From positions 1-62,349 of the forward strand of contig JALFKB010000102.1 of assembly GCA_022775805.1 (NCBI GenBank): a DNA stretch of 62,349 nt, read 5' to 3'. This document shows, in pieces, positions 29,456-38,510 of this stretch. The stretch is from Clostridiales bacterium (GTDB taxonomy: Bacteria > Bacillota > Clostridia > Peptostreptococcales > Anaerovoracaceae). The notes beneath the pieces were generated by a model that saw only the letters and a program-made list of their open reading frames with translations, was not told the DNA's origin and did not search any database. Made by a program: the position numbers and the translations under genes. Positions within the stretch are counted from its first letter, which is position 1. Each line of letters starts with the position of its first letter.

Positions 29456-29846
29456 GATGCCCTCTAAGGTTGAGTCCTGGAGGGTTTTGTTGTATACTTA
29501 AATAAGTCTTGCAATTAACCCGTTATACCGGGATATCATAAGAAAGGAAACGATAATCACATGGAAAAAATGGGCTTAAACAAAATTAGGGAAGAGTTCC
29601 TCAGCTTTTTTGAATCTAAGGATCACTTCAGGAGACAGAGCTATTCACTTGTACCTGAAAATGACAAGAGTCTGCTGCTGATTAATGCTGGCATGGCACC
29701 CCTGAAGCCGTATTTTGCCGGAATAGAAACACCTCCGTCAAAGAGAATGACAACCTGTCAAAAGTGCATCAGAACAGGTGATATCGAAAACGTGGGCTTC
29801 ACTGACAGACACGGCACTTTCTTTGAAATGATGGGAAATTTCTCCT
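29456..29846 (+). repeat. Diverged direct repeat, copy 1: alaS promoter, leader and first 95 codons
   Basis: Aligns to 30103-30493 (offset ~647 nt). About 88% nucleotide identity in the coding part by manual comparison. Confidence 0.95.
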
Positions 29847-29848
29847 AG
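29561..29848 (+). pseudogene. alaS: Truncated alanyl-tRNA synthetase N-terminal fragment (95 aa)
   Basis: 92 of 95 aa identical to the N-terminus of the full alaS. Ends with TAG where the full gene continues TTT GGT. Confidence 0.88.
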
Positions 29849-30102: not shown

Positions 30103-30493
30103 GAAGCCCCGGATATTGAGTCTTCCGGGGTTTTGTTGTATACTTTAATAAGTATTTGCAATTTTACCCGTGAACCGGGATAACATAAGAAAGGAAACGA
30201 TAATCACATGGAAAAAATGGGCTTAAACAAAATCAGAGAAGAGTTTCTCAGTTTCTTTGAATCAAAGGAACACTACAGAAGACAGAGCTATTCACTTGTA
30301 CCGGAAAAGGACAAGAGTCTTCTTCTGATAAACGCGGGAATGGCACCGCTGAAGCCGTACTTCGCGGGTATAGAGACACCGCCGTCAAAGAGAATGACAA
30401 CATGCCAGAAGTGTATAAGAACAGGTGATATCGAAAACGTGGGGTTCACTGACAGACACGGTACCTTCTTCGAAATGATGGGAAATTTTTCCT
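30103..30493 (+). repeat. Diverged direct repeat, copy 2 (5' end of functional alaS)
   Basis: Partner of 29456-29846. Includes TTGAGT(30116)-17-TATACT(30139). Confidence 0.95.
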
Positions 30494-32838
30494 TTGGTGA
30501 TTATTTCAAAAAAGAAGCTATCTCCTGGGCCTGGGAGTTTATTACTGAACACCTTCACATGCCTGTTGACAGGCTCTGGGCAACTGTATATGAAAATGAC
30601 GATGAAGCATACGCGCTCTGGAGAGACATGATTGGTATGCCTGAAGAGAGAATCGTAAGGCTTGGCAAGGATGATAACTTCTGGGAAATCGGTACCGGAC
30701 CATGCGGCCCTTGTTCTGAAATATATTTCGACAGGGGAGAAGCACACGGATGCGGCAGCCCTGACTGCAAGCCGGGCTGCGAGTGTGACAGATATGTTGA
30801 GTTCTGGAATCTTGTTTTTACCCAGTTTGACAGAGATGAGGATGGAAATTACACCGATCTGCCTCATCCGAATATCGATACGGGACTGGGTCTTGAGAGA
30901 ATGGCCTGCGTAATGCAGGATACAAGCTCAATATTTGACGTTGATACCGTTAAGTTCATCAGAGAGGGCGTCGAAAAGGTTTCCGGCGTTAAATACTGCG
31001 ACGGAGCGGAAGCAACAGATGTATCAATCAGAATAATCACAGACCATCTGAGATCCATGACATTCATGATCAGCGACGGAATTCTCCCGGGCAACGAGGG
31101 CAGGGAGTATGTTCTCAGAAGACTCATAAGAAGAGCCGCCATGCACGGACGGAAGCTGGGAATTACAGGACCGTTCCTGTCAGAGCTCTGTGACAGGGTA
31201 ATCGACACCTCAAGCGGCGCTTATCCTGAGCTTGAAAAGCGCAGAATAATGATTAGACGTGTTGTTAATTCCGAAGAGAACAAATTCGCATCAACAATCG
31301 AACTGGGAATGAGCATCATCGATGAATACATTGCTGACATGGTTGTTGCAGGAAGCAAGGTATTAGAGGGTGCAAAGGCCTTCAAGCTTCATGACACCTA
31401 CGGCTTCCCAATTGACCTGACAAAGGAAATACTCTCCGAAAAAGGTTATGAAGTTGATGAAGAGGGCTTCCGCAGGGAAATGGAACAGCAGAAGCTTCGC
31501 TCAAGAACAGAACAGGATATGGAGGGAGCCGGCTGGAAAAACGATGACAATACCCTTGAATTCTCCGGAGAAACTGAATTTGTGGGTTATGTATCGCTGG
31601 ATGCATCAGCTGTAATCAAATCCCTTGTGCTGGATGATGACTTCGTAGATTCCGTAAGGGAAGGGGACACCTGCCTTATGGTTCTGGATAAAACACCTTT
31701 CTATGCCGAAAGCGGCGGTCAGGTGGCAGATGACGGTTTCATCTTCAATGAGAATGGGGGCATTGCCAGAGTTGATGACGTTAAAAAGTCAGGAAAGGTA
31801 TTCACCCACCAGGTATTCATTCAGAAGGGTGAATTCAATACTGGCGACAAGACTGACGCCATGGTTACTGCACCACACAGAAACATGACTGCTGCCAACC
31901 ACTCGGCAACTCATATGCTCCACAAGGCCCTCCAGGAGGTTCTTGGGGATCATGTCAAGCAGTCAGGTTCCCGTGTGGACAGATACGGCCTCAGATTTGA
32001 CTTCTCCCACTATCAGGCTATGACAGATGAGGAAATAGCAAGGGTAGAGGAAATAGTCAACGATAAAATCAGACACTTCATTCCTGTTACTACGAAAGTA
32101 ATGGATATAGATGAAGCCAAAAAAGATGGTGCTATGGCACTCTTTGACGACAAATACGGTGACAAAGTTCGAGTTGTTTCAATCGGTAACTTCAGCAGAG
32201 AGCTGTGCGGCGGTACCCATGTAGCGAACTCAGGAGATCTTGGCGCATTTAAAATTGTAAGCGAAACAGGTGTTGCTTCAGGTGTAAGGCGTATTGAAGC
32301 CATAACAGGTCAGCAGATTCTCGCAAATTATGTTTCCGACCTTGATACAATTAATTCAATAGCGGCAGCCCTGAAATCAAACAAGGATATTATTGCTGAA
32401 AGAGTGTCCGCTCTTATGGATGAAAACAAGGCTCTCAAGAAGGAGCTTGAGGAACTGAAAAGGGCAGAAATGAGCAAAGGCCTTGGTTCTCTCATTGACG
32501 AAGCCGAGGAAATTAACGGAATCAGACTTATTACAAAGGGTTTCGAGGATTACGGCATTAATGATTTAAGAGAGCTTTCAGACCAGATAAAAGCCGACAA
32601 CAAGAATGTTGTAATGGTATTCGCAGCAGTATCCGGCGGCAAGGTTACATTCCTTGTATCAGTAACAGATGATCTGGTTGACAAGGGTCTCCATGCCGGC
32701 AAGATGATTAAGGAAATTGCAGCTGCTGCAGGAGGAGGCGGCGGAGGCAAGGCCGACATGGCCCAGGCCGGTGCCAAGGATCCTTCGAAGATTGATGCTG
32801 CCTTCGAGAAGGCTGTAGAACTTATGAATAAGGCTTAA
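30208..32838 (+). CDS. alaS: Alanine--tRNA ligase
   Basis: [36 protein letters not shown], editing motifs HSATH and ELCGGTH, GGGG tail. Confidence 0.98.
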   Translation: MEKMGLNKIREEFLSFFESKEHYRRQSYSLVPEKDKSLLLINAGMAPLKPYFAGIETPPSKRMTTCQKCIRTGDIENVGFTDRHGTFFEMMGNFSFGDYFKKEAISWAWEFITEHLHMPVDRLWATVYENDDEAYALWRDMIGMPEERIVRLGKDDNFWEIGTGPCGPCSEIYFDRGEAHGCGSPDCKPGCECDRYVEFWNLVFTQFDRDEDGNYTDLPHPNIDTGLGLERMACVMQDTSSIFDVDTVKFIREGVEKVSGVKYCDGAEATDVSIRIITDHLRSMTFMISDGILPGNEGREYVLRRLIRRAAMHGRKLGITGPFLSELCDRVIDTSSGAYPELEKRRIMIRRVVNSEENKFASTIELGMSIIDEYIADMVVAGSKVLEGAKAFKLHDTYGFPIDLTKEILSEKGYEVDEEGFRREMEQQKLRSRTEQDMEGAGWKNDDNTLEFSGETEFVGYVSLDASAVIKSLVLDDDFVDSVREGDTCLMVLDKTPFYAESGGQVADDGFIFNENGGIARVDDVKKSGKVFTHQVFIQKGEFNTGDKTDAMVTAPHRNMTAANHSATHMLHKALQEVLGDHVKQSGSRVDRYGLRFDFSHYQAMTDEEIARVEEIVNDKIRHFIPVTTKVMDIDEAKKDGAMALFDDKYGDKVRVVSIGNFSRELCGGTHVANSGDLGAFKIVSETGVASGVRRIEAITGQQILANYVSDLDTINSIAAALKSNKDIIAERVSALMDENKALKKELEELKRAEMSKGLGSLIDEAEEINGIRLITKGFEDYGINDLRELSDQIKADNKNVVMVFAAVSGGKVTFLVSVTDDLVDKGLHAGKMIKEIAAAAGGGGGGKADMAQAGAKDPSKIDAAFEKAVELMNKA

Positions 32839-33203: not shown

Positions 33204-33635
33204 ATGAAAAAAATCGGTCTGGATGTAGGAGATAAAACAATAGGCGTCGCTGTAAGTGACGCCTTAAATATTACCGCTCAGGGAATAATGACCATAGAGA
33301 GAATAGGCATTAAGAAGGATACAGCTGCAGTAATCGACCTGATAAAAGAACATCTGTGCGACACTGTTGTTATGGGCCTTCCGCTGAAACTTGACGGCAC
33401 AGACAGCCCCCAGACAGAAAAGGTCAGGCAGTTTGCAACTAAGCTTGAAAACAAGCTTAGAGCCGAAAGAATGGGAGATGTTAAAATAGTGTATCAGGAT
33501 GAGCGTCTCACCACGGTAATGGCCGAGAGAGTGCTGATCGATGCCGACTTGTCAAGAGCCAAGCGAAAGAAGGTAATCGACAAGCAGGCTGCTGTGATAA
33601 TTCTTCAGAGTTATCTTGACAGCAATCCTGCATAA
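33204..33635 (+). CDS. ruvX: YqgF/RuvX family RNase H-fold nuclease
   Basis: GLDVGDKTIGVAVSD, GLP, DERLTT, ID..AA..ILQ.YLD. Confidence 0.95.
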   Translation: MKKIGLDVGDKTIGVAVSDALNITAQGIMTIERIGIKKDTAAVIDLIKEHLCDTVVMGLPLKLDGTDSPQTEKVRQFATKLENKLRAERMGDVKIVYQDERLTTVMAERVLIDADLSRAKRKKVIDKQAAVIILQSYLDSNPA

Positions 33636-33663
33636 CAATATAACTCACTTATGAAAAGGAAAG

Positions 33664-33693
33664 GGCCTGAGATACCGAAGAGTGTTTCAGGCC
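33664..33693. terminator. Hairpin left of the dif-like site
   Basis: GGCCTGAGATAC-CGAAGA-GTGTTTCAGGCC. Pyrimidine tail on the - strand. Confidence 0.6.
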
Positions 33694-33712
33694 ATCTACA
33701 TTTATTTACAAC

Positions 33713-33740
33713 TATTCCGATAATCATAATTTTGGGAATA
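33713..33740. other. Putative dif (chromosome dimer resolution) site, 11-6-11
   Basis: TATTCCGATAA-TCATAA-TTTTGGGAATA. Arms match 9/11 as an inverted repeat. Intergenic, at the gene-orientation switch, 2.7 kb from an XerS-like recombinase. Confidence 0.7.
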
Positions 33741-33759
33741 GATATAGCCAAAGAAGTAA

Positions 33760-33795
33760 GGGATAGGCCAAAAAGTGCGGAAAACGGCCTATCCC
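33760..33795. terminator. Hairpin right of the dif-like site (probable yneA terminator)
   Basis: GGGATAGGCC-N16-GGCCTATCCC. Followed by TTACTTCTTT on the - strand. Confidence 0.6.
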
Positions 33796-33902
33796 AGTAG
33801 TTTGTACCATTTATAACCATTCTGTCATTTACCCCGAAAATATCGAGGCTCTATTATTCGATTTAAGGGATTTTATTTTACCCTTTTGATATATGATACC
33901 TG

Positions 33903-34229
33903 TTAAAGACTTACCGGAATATTGAGTTTCATTCCTTCTTCAATATATCCATCCTTAAGATTGTTTTCACGACAGATTTCATATACAGCTTCTCGGGTAT
34001 CCTTATTAGTGCTCTTGTATTCGTAGGCAATGTCCCAGACTGTATCACCGGAAGCAACTTCCACAACGATTTTGTCCTTAGGCTGTGAATCCAATGCCGT
34101 AGCTGAATATAATCCTGAAATCATTCCGAACGCGCCTACAGTGAGTCCAACAACAATTACAAGGAAAACTGTAAATCTTACCGGTGATTTGATTCTGTAT
34201 TTTTTTCTGCCTTTGCTGTTGTTTCTCAT
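33903..34229 (-). CDS. yneA: SOS cell-division inhibitor YneA-like (TM + LysM)
   Basis: Basic N-terminus, one TM helix, LysM (V.SGDTVWDIA...NNL....I..G..L.IP). SOS boxes upstream. ATG follows GAGGTG. Confidence 0.85.
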   Translation of the reverse strand: MRNNSKGRKKYRIKSPVRFTVFLVIVVGLTVGAFGMISGLYSATALDSQPKDKIVVEVASGDTVWDIAYEYKSTNKDTREAVYEICRENNLKDGYIEEGMKLNIPVSL

Positions 34230-34254
34230 GTGACACCTCACTTTCCTACCCTAT

Positions 34255-34325
34255 GAACAACTGTTCGTAGTATTAATATAGCAGAATGTTTGTTCGGTGT
34301 CAACAGTATTTGCGAAAATTTGTTC
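34255..34325 (-). promoter_or_regulatory. yneA promoter with three LexA (Cheo) boxes
   Basis: GAACaactGTTC (34255-66), GAATgtttGTTC (34284-95), GAAAatttGTTC (34314-25). - strand TTGACA(34303)-17-TATATT. Confidence 0.85.
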
Positions 34326-34419
34326 TTTTTTGTTCTGCCTGTTCGTTTCCTTGTTTTCTTGCTCCTTTATCCTTTTATCTCTTGCTGACTCACTCACTAT
34401 CTTTCCGGCTGCTTGCCGG

Positions 34420-35154
34420 CTACATTTCAAGAAGCCTGTCGGTTGCCCTGTGAATAAGATCTATTATTTTCTTTCTGAAAATAACTCCCAGCACGCAGAG
34501 CACAACTGCTGCTGCTGCGATTATTCCGGCACTGAGATATCCCCCTGCGCCCACCTGATGTCCTATTATCAGGCTCCCCACCATTCCCGGAATTCTGCCT
34601 ATGAGAGACACAATAAGATAGGGCTTCAGCTTCAGATCGGATAGGCCCGCCGCATAGCTGCAGAGGTCCTTAGGTATTCCGGGAATCAGAAATATCACAA
34701 AGGTTATTATTAAACCCTTGGGACTGTTCATATTGTCTATCATCTCCGTTACCTTCTTCTCTCCGAAGAGCATATGAACAGCATCCTTTCCCAGAAGTCT
34801 TGCCATGTAGTAAACGATAACGGAGCCAATCGCAGCACCTGCAATGGAAAGAAGCATGCTTGGAACAAATCCAAATAGATATCCTGAGGCAAACTGCAGA
34901 GCCTGTCCCGGAATAATGCATATTATAATCTGAAGCACCTGGGCTCCAATATATACAAGCATGCTCACGTGCTTGTACTGTTCAAGCCACAGCCTCATGT
35001 CCTTGATGCTTGTAAAACCAGAAAAGAATTCCCTCTGAAAAAAGTAAATGTATGCCGGTATACCAATGAGTATCACAGCAAAAACAAGCAACTTCAGTAC
35101 TGCAGATATTTTTTTAAATTTATTGTTTCGCTTTTCTTTTATAGTTTCATCCAT
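34420..35154 (-). CDS. TVP38/TMEM64 (VTT/DedA-like) membrane protein
   Basis: QIIICIIPG, FLIPGIPKD...Y.AGL, GRIPG. Multi-TM. Confidence 0.88.
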   Translation of the reverse strand: MDETIKEKRNNKFKKISAVLKLLVFAVILIGIPAYIYFFQREFFSGFTSIKDMRLWLEQYKHVSMLVYIGAQVLQIIICIIPGQALQFASGYLFGFVPSMLLSIAGAAIGSVIVYYMARLLGKDAVHMLFGEKKVTEMIDNMNSPKGLIITFVIFLIPGIPKDLCSYAAGLSDLKLKPYLIVSLIGRIPGMVGSLIIGHQVGAGGYLSAGIIAAAAVVLCVLGVIFRKKIIDLIHRATDRLLEM

Positions 35155-35169
35155 AGTCGTAAAATCAGC

Positions 35170-36462
35170 TTATAAAGAAACTGTTCCTCGGTCACAAAGC
35201 TCCTGGAGGGCCTTGATTACACCGAACTTCGAGTGTTCATAAGTAAGACCTCCCTGGAAATATACTATATACGGCTCTCTGATTGGAGCGTCGGCAGAAA
35301 GCTCAATTGAGGAACCCTGAACGAAGGCACCTGCAGCCATTATTACAGGATCTTCATATCCCGGCATTGCCCAAGGCTCAGGTGAAACATGGGAGTCAAT
35401 TGGAGCCGCAGCCTGTATGCCTTTGCAGAAGCCTATGACAGCCTCAGGAGACCCCAGTTTAACAGCCTGAATGATATCGCTTCTCAGATCCTCCGATTTC
35501 GGACATACCTCATAGCCCAGTTTTTCGAATACACGTGCACAGAGTACAGCTCCCTTGACTGCTCCGTTTACAGTCTTCGGTGCTATGAAGAGCCCCTGAA
35601 GCATTGTTCTCGTCTGTCCGAAGGTCAGACCACATTCGCCGCCGATTCCCGGTGTTGTGAGCCTGTAGCTTACTTTATCAATCAGATCGGCTCTTCCTGC
35701 AATGTATCCGCCGGTGAGAGCTAGACCGCCGCCGGGGTTCTTGATCAGAGATCCCGCCATTATGTCTGCACCCACATCAGTAGGTTCCTTCACATGAAGG
35801 AACTCCCCGTAGCAGTTGTCCACCATACGCACAATATCAGGGTTAATATTTCTGACAAATTCTGCCCACTCCTGTATTTCTTCGATTGAAATGGCCTTTC
35901 TCCAGCCATAGCCTGTTGCCCTCTGAAGGCAAACCATTCTAGTGGCAGGGGTAATTGCCTTTGCAACAGCTTCAAGGTCGATTCTGCCATCCGGTGTGAG
36001 CTCAACCTGGGAATAGGTCACACCGTAGTCCTTAAGAGAGCCCTTGCCCTCTCCACGAATTCCTATTGTTTCCTCAAGTGTATCGTAGGGTGCTCCCGTG
36101 CAGTAAATCATGTGATCCCCGGGACGAAGAACCCCTGTGAGGGCCAGACTCAAGGCATGGGTGCCGTTTACGATTATAGGTCTTACAAGAGCAGCCTCCG
36201 CATGGAATATGTCTGCGAAAACCCGTTCTGTGGCGTCCCTGCCCGCATCATCGTATCCGTAACCTGTGTTCCAGGAAAAGTGTCTGTCACAGATGCCGTT
36301 CTTCTGGAATGCATCAAGAACCTTGTACTGGTTGTAGGCCATTATGTCGTCAAGCTTTGTGAAACAGTCGGCTACCTCCCTCTCGGCCTCATCAATTATG
36401 TTAAGCACCTTTTCTGATATATTGAAGTTGTTAATAAGAAGATTGTGTGTATTTTTCTGCAT
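35170..36462 (-). CDS. YnbB-like PLP enzyme (methionine gamma-lyase/aluminium-resistance family)
   Basis: TGYGYDD.GR, GTHA, VDNCYGEF, GSLIKNPGGG, MAAGAFVQGSSIELSAD. Confidence 0.93.
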   Translation of the reverse strand: MQKNTHNLLINNFNISEKVLNIIDEAEREVADCFTKLDDIMAYNQYKVLDAFQKNGICDRHFSWNTGYGYDDAGRDATERVFADIFHAEAALVRPIIVNGTHALSLALTGVLRPGDHMIYCTGAPYDTLEETIGIRGEGKGSLKDYGVTYSQVELTPDGRIDLEAVAKAITPATRMVCLQRATGYGWRKAISIEEIQEWAEFVRNINPDIVRMVDNCYGEFLHVKEPTDVGADIMAGSLIKNPGGGLALTGGYIAGRADLIDKVSYRLTTPGIGGECGLTFGQTRTMLQGLFIAPKTVNGAVKGAVLCARVFEKLGYEVCPKSEDLRSDIIQAVKLGSPEAVIGFCKGIQAAAPIDSHVSPEPWAMPGYEDPVIMAAGAFVQGSSIELSADAPIREPYIVYFQGGLTYEHSKFGVIKALQELCDRGTVSL

Positions 36463-37596
36463 TTAGTCCCTTTCCTTTCTTTCAAGCTCCCATTCCATGT
36501 CGCTGACAAGGTCTCTCTTAACATTCATCTTATGGGAAGCATACAGCTGTGTTGTTGTAACCTGTTCGTGATCAAGCAGCTCCTGGACATCGAATATGGA
36601 ATTTCCCCTTCCAATGAGACTCGTGGCGGCAGTTGCCCTGAGCTTGTGAGGGCTGTAGCCCCCCTTTCTTGATGTTGCCAGACCGATGGAGGTGTATTTC
36701 TTAACAAGATCCCGGATTGCCCGTTCCGTCATTCTTCTGCCCTGAAGGGACAGAAACAGCGCATCATGATGTCCTTCTTTGATCTTTTCGTCTGAAGGTC
36801 GTTCATTGTCCAGATAGTCCCTCAGTACCTCAGTAACGGACTTGTTCATAGGCATAATTGCTTCCTTGTCCCGCTTTCGGTATATCTTGAACTCTCCCCT
36901 GTTAAAATTGAAGGAAGACACGTTGAGCTGCTGCAGCTCGAAGAGCCTGAGCCCGTAGGTGAGAAAGAGGATAAGTATGGCCTTGTCCCGTTTCCTTGTT
37001 TTCTCCCAGTACTGATGCTCCTTGGGGGTAAGGCTGGCGCCTGTGGTGACAGCATCCAGCATTATCATAACCTCATCATCCTGGAGTGCCTTGATTTCCC
37101 GTTCTCCCGGCTTGGGAACACGGATTGGATCGAAGCCGTCAGTTATGTTTTTATCCAGAAGCTCATCCCTGTACAGCTGTTTAAACAGCACCGAGACAGA
37201 TGATTTCTTCCTGGCAAGGGTCTTGTTGGTGTTTTCGAAAACAACGATTTCATTTTCCTTTTCAACCCTGTAGCTGCGGCAGTAATCAATAAACAGGTTA
37301 ACATCAGCAGCTCTGATATTCCTGAATTCATCCAGCTTGATTTCTCTTGTTTCCCGGGCTTCTGTAAGATCCGTTTCGTTAATAAGATACTGGCAGAAAA
37401 ACCTGATATCCGTCAGATAGGCCAGCCTTGACATTGGGAGAACATTTCCCCTGAGGTAAGCAAAAAAGCCTCTCATGAAGCTGGGAAGCTGCCTTTGCAG
37501 CTCCTCGCATCTGGAGACTATTTCATGTTCTTTAAGGATAATATTATCCGGTTTGTCGCTTCTGTTGTGAAGCTTTACAGTTTTTTCCTCAGCCAC
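36463..37596 (-). CDS. Tyrosine recombinase, XerS-like
   Basis: Catalytic set R217, K241, H317-K-L-R320, H343, Y352. Segments LT.KE..YW.K...RD.AI, ALFLSL and SPHKLR resemble XerS as recalled. GTG start overlaps miaA. Confidence 0.9.
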   Translation of the reverse strand: MAEEKTVKLHNRSDKPDNIILKEHEIVSRCEELQRQLPSFMRGFFAYLRGNVLPMSRLAYLTDIRFFCQYLINETDLTEARETREIKLDEFRNIRAADVNLFIDYCRSYRVEKENEIVVFENTNKTLARKKSSVSVLFKQLYRDELLDKNITDGFDPIRVPKPGEREIKALQDDEVMIMLDAVTTGASLTPKEHQYWEKTRKRDKAILILFLTYGLRLFELQQLNVSSFNFNRGEFKIYRKRDKEAIMPMNKSVTEVLRDYLDNERPSDEKIKEGHHDALFLSLQGRRMTERAIRDLVKKYTSIGLATSRKGGYSPHKLRATAATSLIGRGNSIFDVQELLDHEQVTTTQLYASHKMNVKRDLVSDMEWELERKERD

Positions 37597-38510
37597 TCCT
37601 CTATATCCTCAAAGGCCCTTTCATCATTCAAGTATTCCGATAAATTGTACCATCTCATTTTATCATATCTTCTGAACCAAGTTAACTGTCTTTTCGCATA
37701 ATGCCTGGTGTTTTTCTTTATCAGCAGAATTGTCTCATCAAGGCTCATTCTTCCCTCAAGGTACTCGAATATTTCCTTGTATCCTATTCCCTTCATGGAA
37801 ATGTCTTCCTTATCAAGACCCATGTTCATAAGCTGGCGCACCTCATCCACAAGACCCATTTCCATAAGCTTGTCCACTCTTGAATTTATCCTCTCATAGA
37901 GAAGCTCTCTGTCCCTGGTAAGCCCCAGGAGAACAGCTTCAAACTCCTGTCGCTTCCTGCACACGCTGCTGAAGGGTCTGAGTGAAGACTCCCCGCTGTT
38001 CAGCCTCTCTAGGGCTCTGATAATCTTCTTGCGGTTGTTGGGATGTATATTCTCCGCCCCTACAGGATCCCTGGCCCTGAGCATATCATGCAAAACCGGG
38101 TCACCCTTTTCCTCCGCAAGCCTTTCCAGATAACTCCTGTATTCAGAATCCGCTCCCTCGCCGCCGAAATCCATATCGTAAAGGATTGAGTTAAGATAAA
38201 GTCCCGTACCGCCGGAGATTACCGGAAGCTTTCCCCGGGACAGTATGTCATGGATTGCCTCCAGAGCCAGCTTCTGATATTCAGCCGCCGAGAAGTTTTC
38301 CCGGGGATCCACAAAGTCAACCAGATGGTGAACGGCTCTATCTCTTTCCTCGGCAGTGGGCTTGGCACTTCCGATGTCCATGAACCTGTAAATCTGCATG
38401 GAGTCGCAGGATACAATTTCGCCGTTAAATGCATTACAGGCCCTTATGGCGTATTCTGTTTTTCCAACGGCTGTAGGGCCGGCAATCACAAGTACTTTGG
38501 CAGTATTCAT
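37575..38510 (-). CDS. miaA: tRNA dimethylallyltransferase
   Basis: GPTAVGKT, DSMQIY..MDIGSAKP, GGTGLY, TR.YAKRQ.TW. Confidence 0.97.
   Translation of the reverse strand: MNTAKVLVIAGPTAVGKTEYAIRACNAFNGEIVSCDSMQIYRFMDIGSAKPTAEERDRAVHHLVDFVDPRENFSAAEYQKLALEAIHDILSRGKLPVISGGTGLYLNSILYDMDFGGEGADSEYRSYLERLAEEKGDPVLHDMLRARDPVGAENIHPNNRKKIIRALERLNSGESSLRPFSSVCRKRQEFEAVLLGLTRDRELLYERINSRVDKLMEMGLVDEVRQLMNMGLDKEDISMKGIGYKEIFEYLEGRMSLDETILLIKKNTRHYAKRQLTWFRRYDKMRWYNLSEYLNDERAFEDIEEWLRKKL

Follow-up and report, generated by a model that had tools for sequence, protein, structure and literature searches.

A candidate dif site and a single XerS-related recombinase at the replication terminus of bacteria under the order Peptostreptococcales

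The window analysed in this work is a whole stretch of 62,349 nucleotides of contig JALFKB010000102.1 (assembly GCA_022775805.1) from a Clostridiales gut bacterium under the family Anaerovoracaceae and the order Peptostreptococcales. It holds a 34-bp element at a flip of the GC skew and, 2.7 kb away, the gene of a tyrosine recombinase that is related to XerS. The element is very probably the dif site of this single recombinase, which would act as an FtsK-licensed homotetramer. A role in chromosome dimer resolution is proposed by analogy with XerS/difSL and XerH/difH. The main features are as follows.

33710..33743, no strand: dif-like site with 14-6-14 geometry, defined by column conservation, position weight matrix (PWM), and uniqueness
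33710-33723: left arm of the site, AACTATTCCGATAA
33724-33729: spacer of the site, TCATAA
33730-33743: right arm of the site, TTTTGGGAATAGAT
33497..34032, no strand: plateau of the cumulative GC skew (peak at 33787) with convergent genes, the replication terminus
36463..37596, minus strand: 377-aa tyrosine recombinase with intact RKHRHY residues, in a clade sister to XerS, order-wide and single copy

A preliminary description of the window had reported a 28-mer at 33713-33740 with 11-6-11 geometry and arms complementary at 9 of 11 positions, and this 28-mer is present at that position. The geometry had been read as a sign of a Xer site. It is weak by itself, with 439 such inverted repeats (at least 9/11 pairing) in the 1.49-Mb assembly and 19 in the window. 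The core of the site was placed correctly and its length was not: column conservation over 56 Anaerovoracaceae sites stops at 33710 and 33743 with a steep fall on either side, so the element is 34 bp long with 14-6-14 geometry. The arms of the site in this genome pair at 11/14 positions. Arm positions 3-9, 13, and 14 are paired in the majority of sites, compensatory changes are seen at arm position 2, and the base sequence is kept across 12 families. The 28-mer is single in the genome, where the second-best match has 8 mismatches, and the PWM score of the site is 56 compared to 7 for the runner-up position. Uniqueness, position, and conservation are the features that set the site apart from chance; geometry alone does not.

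The cumulative G-C peak at 33787 lies approximately 60 bp off the centre of the site. Over the first 33 kb of the window the GC skew is almost everywhere positive, over the last 29 kb it is negative, and the genes on both sides converge on the site. The median distance between the site and the local skew peak is 101 bp among the 42 Anaerovoracaceae loci with 3 kb on both sides of the site, and it is at most 300 bp in 33 of them. The angle between the site and dnaA is 183 degrees in G037 and 176 degrees in G046, both closed or near-closed chromosomes. In G548, where 57 kb separate the gene from the site, the skew peak stays with the site at a distance of 43 bp. The search for FtsK orienting polar sequences (KOPS) in the window returned only a general purine skew; the E. 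coli motif is oriented 5 to 0 toward the site, which is too few to use.

The catalytic residues that had been listed for the recombinase (R217, K241, H317, R320, H343, and Y352) are all present in the 377-aa open reading frame (ORF), and the RKHRHY set is intact in each aligned orthologue. The protein has the core-binding domain and the catalytic domain of a tyrosine recombinase. Its distance from the site, 2.7 kb with three genes in between (a YneA-like LysM protein, a VTT/DedA protein, and a Met_gamma_lyase family protein), is also as described. The best NCBIfam score was obtained with XerS (148.2 bits), followed by XerA (127), XerC (125), and XerD (120); the cut-off of the XerS family (NF003462) is 267 bits. 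In the tree of 38 rows, the clade of the protein groups with a wider clostridial family (support 96/89), both group with NCBI-labelled XerS (100/96), the XerS clade itself is supported by 100/99, and XerC/D stand apart (100/99). A tree of 79 rows, made with the quick search only, agrees. Plasmid XerS was used in the tree because a draw of 300 genomes from the phylum gave no streptococcal XerS; XerS above the cut-off was found in five of those genomes, which at 4.6-7.3 Mb are evidently not streptococci. The XerS-like identity given to the protein thus stands in part, for it falls beside XerS and away from XerC/D while staying outside the XerS clade and below its cut-off. By its sequence it is placed as the sister to XerS and not inside the XerS family, and it would work like XerS without being a member of that family. 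The structure model (pLDDT 88.9) matches tyrosine recombinases generally. VIA-align gave tied results for XerA (Z 20.5, root-mean-square deviation (rmsd) 16.6) and XerH (Z 20.1, rmsd 5.0, 294 residues aligned), and together with Foldseek it confirmed the fold without ranking XerH, XerA, and Cre. All matches of the protein search were close relatives bearing generic names.

Relatives with the orthologue had been expected to keep the site at their terminus, and the counts at genus, family, and order level as well as the skew position bear this out. The 28-mer was found within 3 mismatches in 28/36 genomes of the same genus and in 0/24 genomes of other families, with no match for the reversed control. 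At the family level, the 80 loci that matched the protein best were examined, with titles including Lentihominibacter, Anaerovorax, and Anaerovoracaceae. The site is present within 6 mismatches in 57 of these loci, 2.6-9.6 kb downstream of the gene, and the best match of the control still has 7 mismatches. Eighteen of the 23 loci without the site have less than 5 kb of DNA downstream. The family profile revealed a variant in other families, with the same arms and the spacer TGTATA, in 14/20 loci. At the order level, the orthologue was found in 186/201 genomes, always as a single copy (E 1e-90 or better), and the strict site pattern in 135/201 genomes (reversed control 0). The site accompanies the gene in 133/186 gene-positive genomes versus 2/15 gene-negative genomes, and the latter two are highly fragmented (380 and 460 contigs). 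Both gene and site are absent from genus g9 (0/6 each). The distance between site and gene reaches about 100 kb elsewhere in the order.

The position of the site three genes downstream of the recombinase holds for this genome and is a state of the family: the displaced site is assigned to the Anaerovoracaceae level because 9 of the 14 other-family sites near the gene lie at most 600 bp directly upstream of it. The arms are constant while the spacers vary between families and on phages, which is the pattern of a recombinase overlap region. Site and recombinase have also been duplicated together. The 808-kb plasmid of Peptoclostridium acidaminophilum carries a paralogue (L246:9770-11116) with its own site directly upstream and a different spacer. 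The chromosome of G038 carries a paralogue with its own site upstream (L149:3940-5522), 5 kb from the main gene, and both paralogues belong to one paralogous clade. A distant family of approximately 350 aa (30-37% identity) was found in 24 other genomes of a class draw of 201 genomes, often with a related 14-6-14 site upstream of the gene; its site pattern occurs in 14/201 class genomes (control 0). NZ_CP154629.1 (L245; 2.63 Mb) is listed as a plasmid and is probably a chromosome: miaA, mutL, the orthologue, the site, and a skew flip are all found on it.

The genes around the site and a one-arm match near the recombinase start are as follows.

33204..33635, plus strand: RuvX/YqgF family gene, the last plus-strand gene before the site, in only 38/57 family loci (this flank is variable)
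33903..34241, minus strand: YneA-like LysM protein, which adjoins the site in 57/57 site-holding family loci
34420..35154, minus strand: VTT/DedA membrane protein, intervening housekeeping gene
35170..36462, minus strand: PF06838 Met_gamma_lyase family protein, intervening housekeeping gene
37630..37643, plus strand: one-arm match AAGTATTCCGATAA, 47 nt upstream of the recombinase start in the 3' end of miaA, score 12.9

The constant neighbourhood of the SOS-regulated yneA-like gene, together with the fact that palindromes are commonly operators, would fit a site bound by another dimeric protein that acts at the terminus (a fork trap, a terminus organiser, or a repressor), in which case the recombinase would share only the location. 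We consider this very unlikely. The site is single copy and lies between gene ends here, in other families the recombinase gene directly follows it, it was lost together with the gene in genus g9, and it was duplicated along with the recombinase paralogues.

The one-arm match is possibly an autoregulatory half-site. A one-arm score of at least 10 occurs at the same place in 13/79 family loci versus 0/79 for a control stretch, and the match is weak genome-wide, where 45 places score at least 12. A promoter half-site as a general feature was rejected, with 13/79 loci only and a position within the coding sequence of miaA. A conserved sequence beside the one-arm match (37630-37665), in the end of miaA, resembles an extended -10 element. 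Upstream of the yneA-like gene, the sequences at 34255-34266 and 34284-34295 resemble LexA boxes; no lexA adjoins the yneA-like gene in this region of the window. A short ORF at 29561-29848, 650 bp upstream of the full alaS (30208-32838), is near-identical to the first 95 codons of alaS and is a partial duplication or an assembly artefact.

This genome has four tyrosine recombinase loci. They encode the recombinase described above, an integrase-like protein of 432 aa, an integrase that is split and lies next to a tRNA-like sequence, and a XerD orthologue linked to nudF. XerC above the cut-off was found in none of the five genomes tested, three of which are single-contig, and the single-contig genomes G034 and G603 have only the recombinase and the XerD orthologue as Xer-like matches. 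No canonical dif with a XerD arm was found within 2 mismatches in this genome, where the absence of XerC and of a canonical dif is unproven because the assembly is 94% complete in 139 contigs. The refuting case of a canonical XerC/XerD pair with dif elsewhere was not found in this genome, whose XerD orthologue is catalytically degenerate.

The XerD orthologue of this genome (L001:1180-2061) scores 318 bits against a cut-off of 329.6 bits, and K, D, and N occupy positions 148, 172, and 244 (R-to-K, K-to-D, and H-to-N). Most genomes of the order retain the orthologue (300-380 bits with TIGR02225 in 51/61), and its tyrosine is conserved. When the 30 best-scoring orthologues (L197-L226) and that of this genome were aligned to E. 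coli XerD, RKHRHY was kept in 1/31, and the other 30 lack at least one catalytic residue; the set was kept in all 8 XerC/D proteins used as controls, which come from E. coli and three further genomes. The same decay is seen in two XerD-like proteins (L323 and L324), whose genomes carry XerS on the chromosome and have no further XerC/D match. The residues suggest that the nudF-linked orthologue has likely lost catalysis, and it may be retained because of a non-catalytic function, for example the unloading of SMC, which reportedly needs no catalysis. This genome carries SMC, and XerD is described as unloading SMC at the terminus in Bacillus in the relevant part of PMC12322038; that this explains the retention is our inference.

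The retention of XerD in 51/61 genomes, its conserved tyrosine, and the incomplete identity of the arms (11/14) would suit a dif site shared by two proteins, the recombinase and the XerD orthologue. This is even less likely than binding by another dimeric protein. Apart from the lost catalytic residues, the paired arm positions 3-9, 13, and 14 speak against two distinct arms, and G056 (100% complete) and G059 (96%) hold gene and site without a XerD-level match. Moreover, neither arm resembles the XerD arms of the Firmicute dif sites given in the consulted part of Kono 2011 (PMC3025954), as had been claimed from the 28-mer.

The five genomes without the gene that were searched (G044, G045, G578, G587, and G595) have no canonical dif above the control, and the expected swap to XerCD in orthologue-lacking genomes was not seen. 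G044 and G045 carry different recombinases of 329-339 aa (L331:8914-9900 and L330:8978-10060). The one in G045 is encoded at a position roughly opposite to dnaA and is preceded by a XerD-arm-like sequence; it is possibly a replacement for the orthologue.

Several points weigh against the assignment of the site and the recombinase to one system. Five of the 80 family loci have more than 5 kb of DNA downstream and yet no site. The strict pattern is absent in 53/186 gene-positive genomes; seven of those loci were rescored, where five have clear variant sites and two have weak ones (L338 and L339). G592 (L342) has neither a skew flip near the gene nor a clear site. At loci whose site immediately precedes the gene, the local skew peak frequently falls 1-3 kb from the site, and gene orientation confounds the local skew. 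The counts are not independent since the genomes are related and the family loci and genome draws probably overlap. The tree contains no XerH, and NCBI-labelled plasmid and bacilli XerS served in it as stand-ins for streptococcal chromosomal XerS. The incompleteness of the assembly is a further point.

The system shares several characteristics with XerS/difSL of Streptococcus and Lactococcus as presented in the consulted parts of Le Bourgeois 2007 (PMC1914069), Nolivos 2010 (PMC2965235), and PMC5357621: a single recombinase of about 355-380 aa, a near-symmetric and unique site at the GC-skew shift, and, in many genomes of the order, a site immediately upstream of the gene. The left arm and the left half of difSL printed there, TTTCCGAAAA, have TTCCGA in common, as had been noticed. 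XerS is also the sister clade in the tree, and a similar arm precedes a plasmid-borne XerS gene of Streptococcus salivarius. The system differs from XerS/difSL in its score and separate clade (148 versus the 267-bit cut-off), in the equal 14-bp arms without the extra base reported for difSL in those parts, in the site 2.7 kb downstream (2.6-9.6 kb in Anaerovoracaceae) instead of immediately upstream, and in the retention of a degenerate XerD orthologue. Symmetric palindromes of XerD-type arms lie approximately 1 kb upstream of XerS-family genes (L228:567-600 and L230:463-496).

XerH/difH of Helicobacter and Campylobacter, as described in the relevant part of Bebel 2016 (PMC5241119), likewise has a single recombinase, two arms, and a 6-bp centre that XerH barely reads. 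The structure model aligns with XerH over 294 residues as given above, whereas the identity is 17-18% and the profile match (E 2.6e-17) is weaker than that of XerD or XerA. The terminus position, the 6-bp spacer, and FtsK are shared with XerC/XerD-dif of E. coli and with the Firmicute dif sites covered by Kono 2011; the differences are no XerD arm, no XerC found, longer arms, a longer protein, and a place on the other side of the tree. Two intact paralogues, as in XerCD/dif, were not found in this 94% complete genome.

The arm pattern with a free spacer was found in 61 IMG/VR contigs (L247-L307) that form 30 clusters, and the reversed pattern in none. The arm identity was imposed by the search pattern and the freedom of the spacer was not. 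Sixty of the 61 sites lie outside ORFs of at least 100 aa. None of seven host neighbour genes occurs in any phage locus, and a distant tyrosine recombinase lies within 5 kb of the site in two loci. The sites are often between or just upstream of terminase genes. The terminase large subunit is present in the locus in 18/30 clusters, and the site lies 0-1.2 kb upstream of its start in 11 clusters and at most 4.5 kb downstream in 5 (crude binomial 2e-9, with clusters that are not independent); the terminase calls come from PHROG labels on 86 of 149 listed ORFs. ParA is nearby in three clusters. A tyrosine recombinase is encoded in 21/46 phage records searched and in 14/20 near-complete ones. The related contigs L250 and L289 have two sites each, about 74 bp apart. 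Three of the four extra chromosomal copies examined lie beside terminase genes and not near a skew flip. With 3 mismatches to the site, a CRISPR spacer in G034 (L067:1500-1532) indicates that an invader has carried such a site. The narrow pattern of site and CRISPR spacer returned no viral contigs. When the site was compared by blastn with records of cultured phages, the matches were at chance level only, and an XerS-family query against the same records gave nothing.

These carriers resemble integrative mobile elements exploiting Xer (IMEX) and plasmid or phage resolution sites, such as the gokushovirus dif motifs in the part of PMC7062461 consulted, in that mobile elements carry a tyrosine recombinase site. 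The carriers here are tailed double-stranded DNA phages, unlike the carriers given there. The near-complete records mostly have their own integrase elsewhere, and no cognate recombinase lies beside the site. The phage spacers are of 28 kinds, and 60/61 differ from the four main host spacers. Integration at dif should be blocked by this mismatch, which makes post-injection circularisation or dimer resolution by the host enzyme the better guess for what the phage sites may serve. The loxP site of P1 lies near pac and is used to circularise the genome. A broader scenario is possible, with the odds somewhat against it: one order-specific Xer would resolve dimers while XerD is non-catalytic, and many tailed phages would carry a spacer-incompatible copy of the host site behind the packaging start, through which the host enzyme would close the terminally redundant genome into a circle after injection or would resolve dimers of phage-plasmids, as in Cre-lox of P1 with the recombinase outsourced.

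The same arms on phages and prophages would also be expected if the recombinase were a domesticated integrase with its att site and without a role in dimer resolution. This explanation is highly improbable, lower still than the two-protein dif, for the gene is single copy among housekeeping genes in 186/201 genomes, there are only 2 matches in 72,556 plasmid records (one of them chromosome-sized), the orthologue is not encoded near the phage sites, and the terminus position is fixed. An RNA hairpin, for instance a bidirectional terminator between ruvX and yneA, would suit the convergent genes and the compensatory changes at position 2 and is largely excluded by the absence of a terminator-like call and of a Rfam match above noise, by frequent true mismatches at positions 10-12 (47 and 50 of 61 phage sites), by the position upstream of a gene in other families, and by the conservation of the base sequence itself across 12 families.

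The dif site and its single recombinase remain the preferred explanation. FtsK is complete in this genome, with four transmembrane segments, motor, and gamma domains. One recombinase monomer would bind each 14-bp arm, and two sister sites would be brought together at the septum in a homotetramer. FtsK, moving along the DNA toward the terminus, would license two strand exchanges in a defined order at the borders of the 6-bp spacer, which would resolve the chromosome dimer to two monomers. The order of cleavage may be set by the conserved mismatches at arm positions 10-12.

Single-recombinase dif systems are already known; what stands out here is the order-wide pair, the degenerate XerD, and the phage copies of the site. 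No description of such a pair for Peptostreptococcales was found in the literature searched, which covered few subscription journals and had the dif table of PMC1914069 outside its scope. The consulted part of the review PMC5357621 does not mention clostridia. The dif survey of Kono 2011, in the part consulted, has 19 rows of Clostridia with none from Peptostreptococcales, and its Clostridium entries either lack a site or place it 137-176 degrees away from the skew shift. The findings in this work name a candidate dif site and recombinase for the order that includes C. difficile, from a draw of 201 genomes of that order. The site provides a terminus landmark and is a candidate for marker excision or integration tools. 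The pair is also an example, open to testing, of the decay of XerD to a non-catalytic form once a single recombinase has taken over, and the phage copies suggest that tailed phages may exploit host Xer in a new way.

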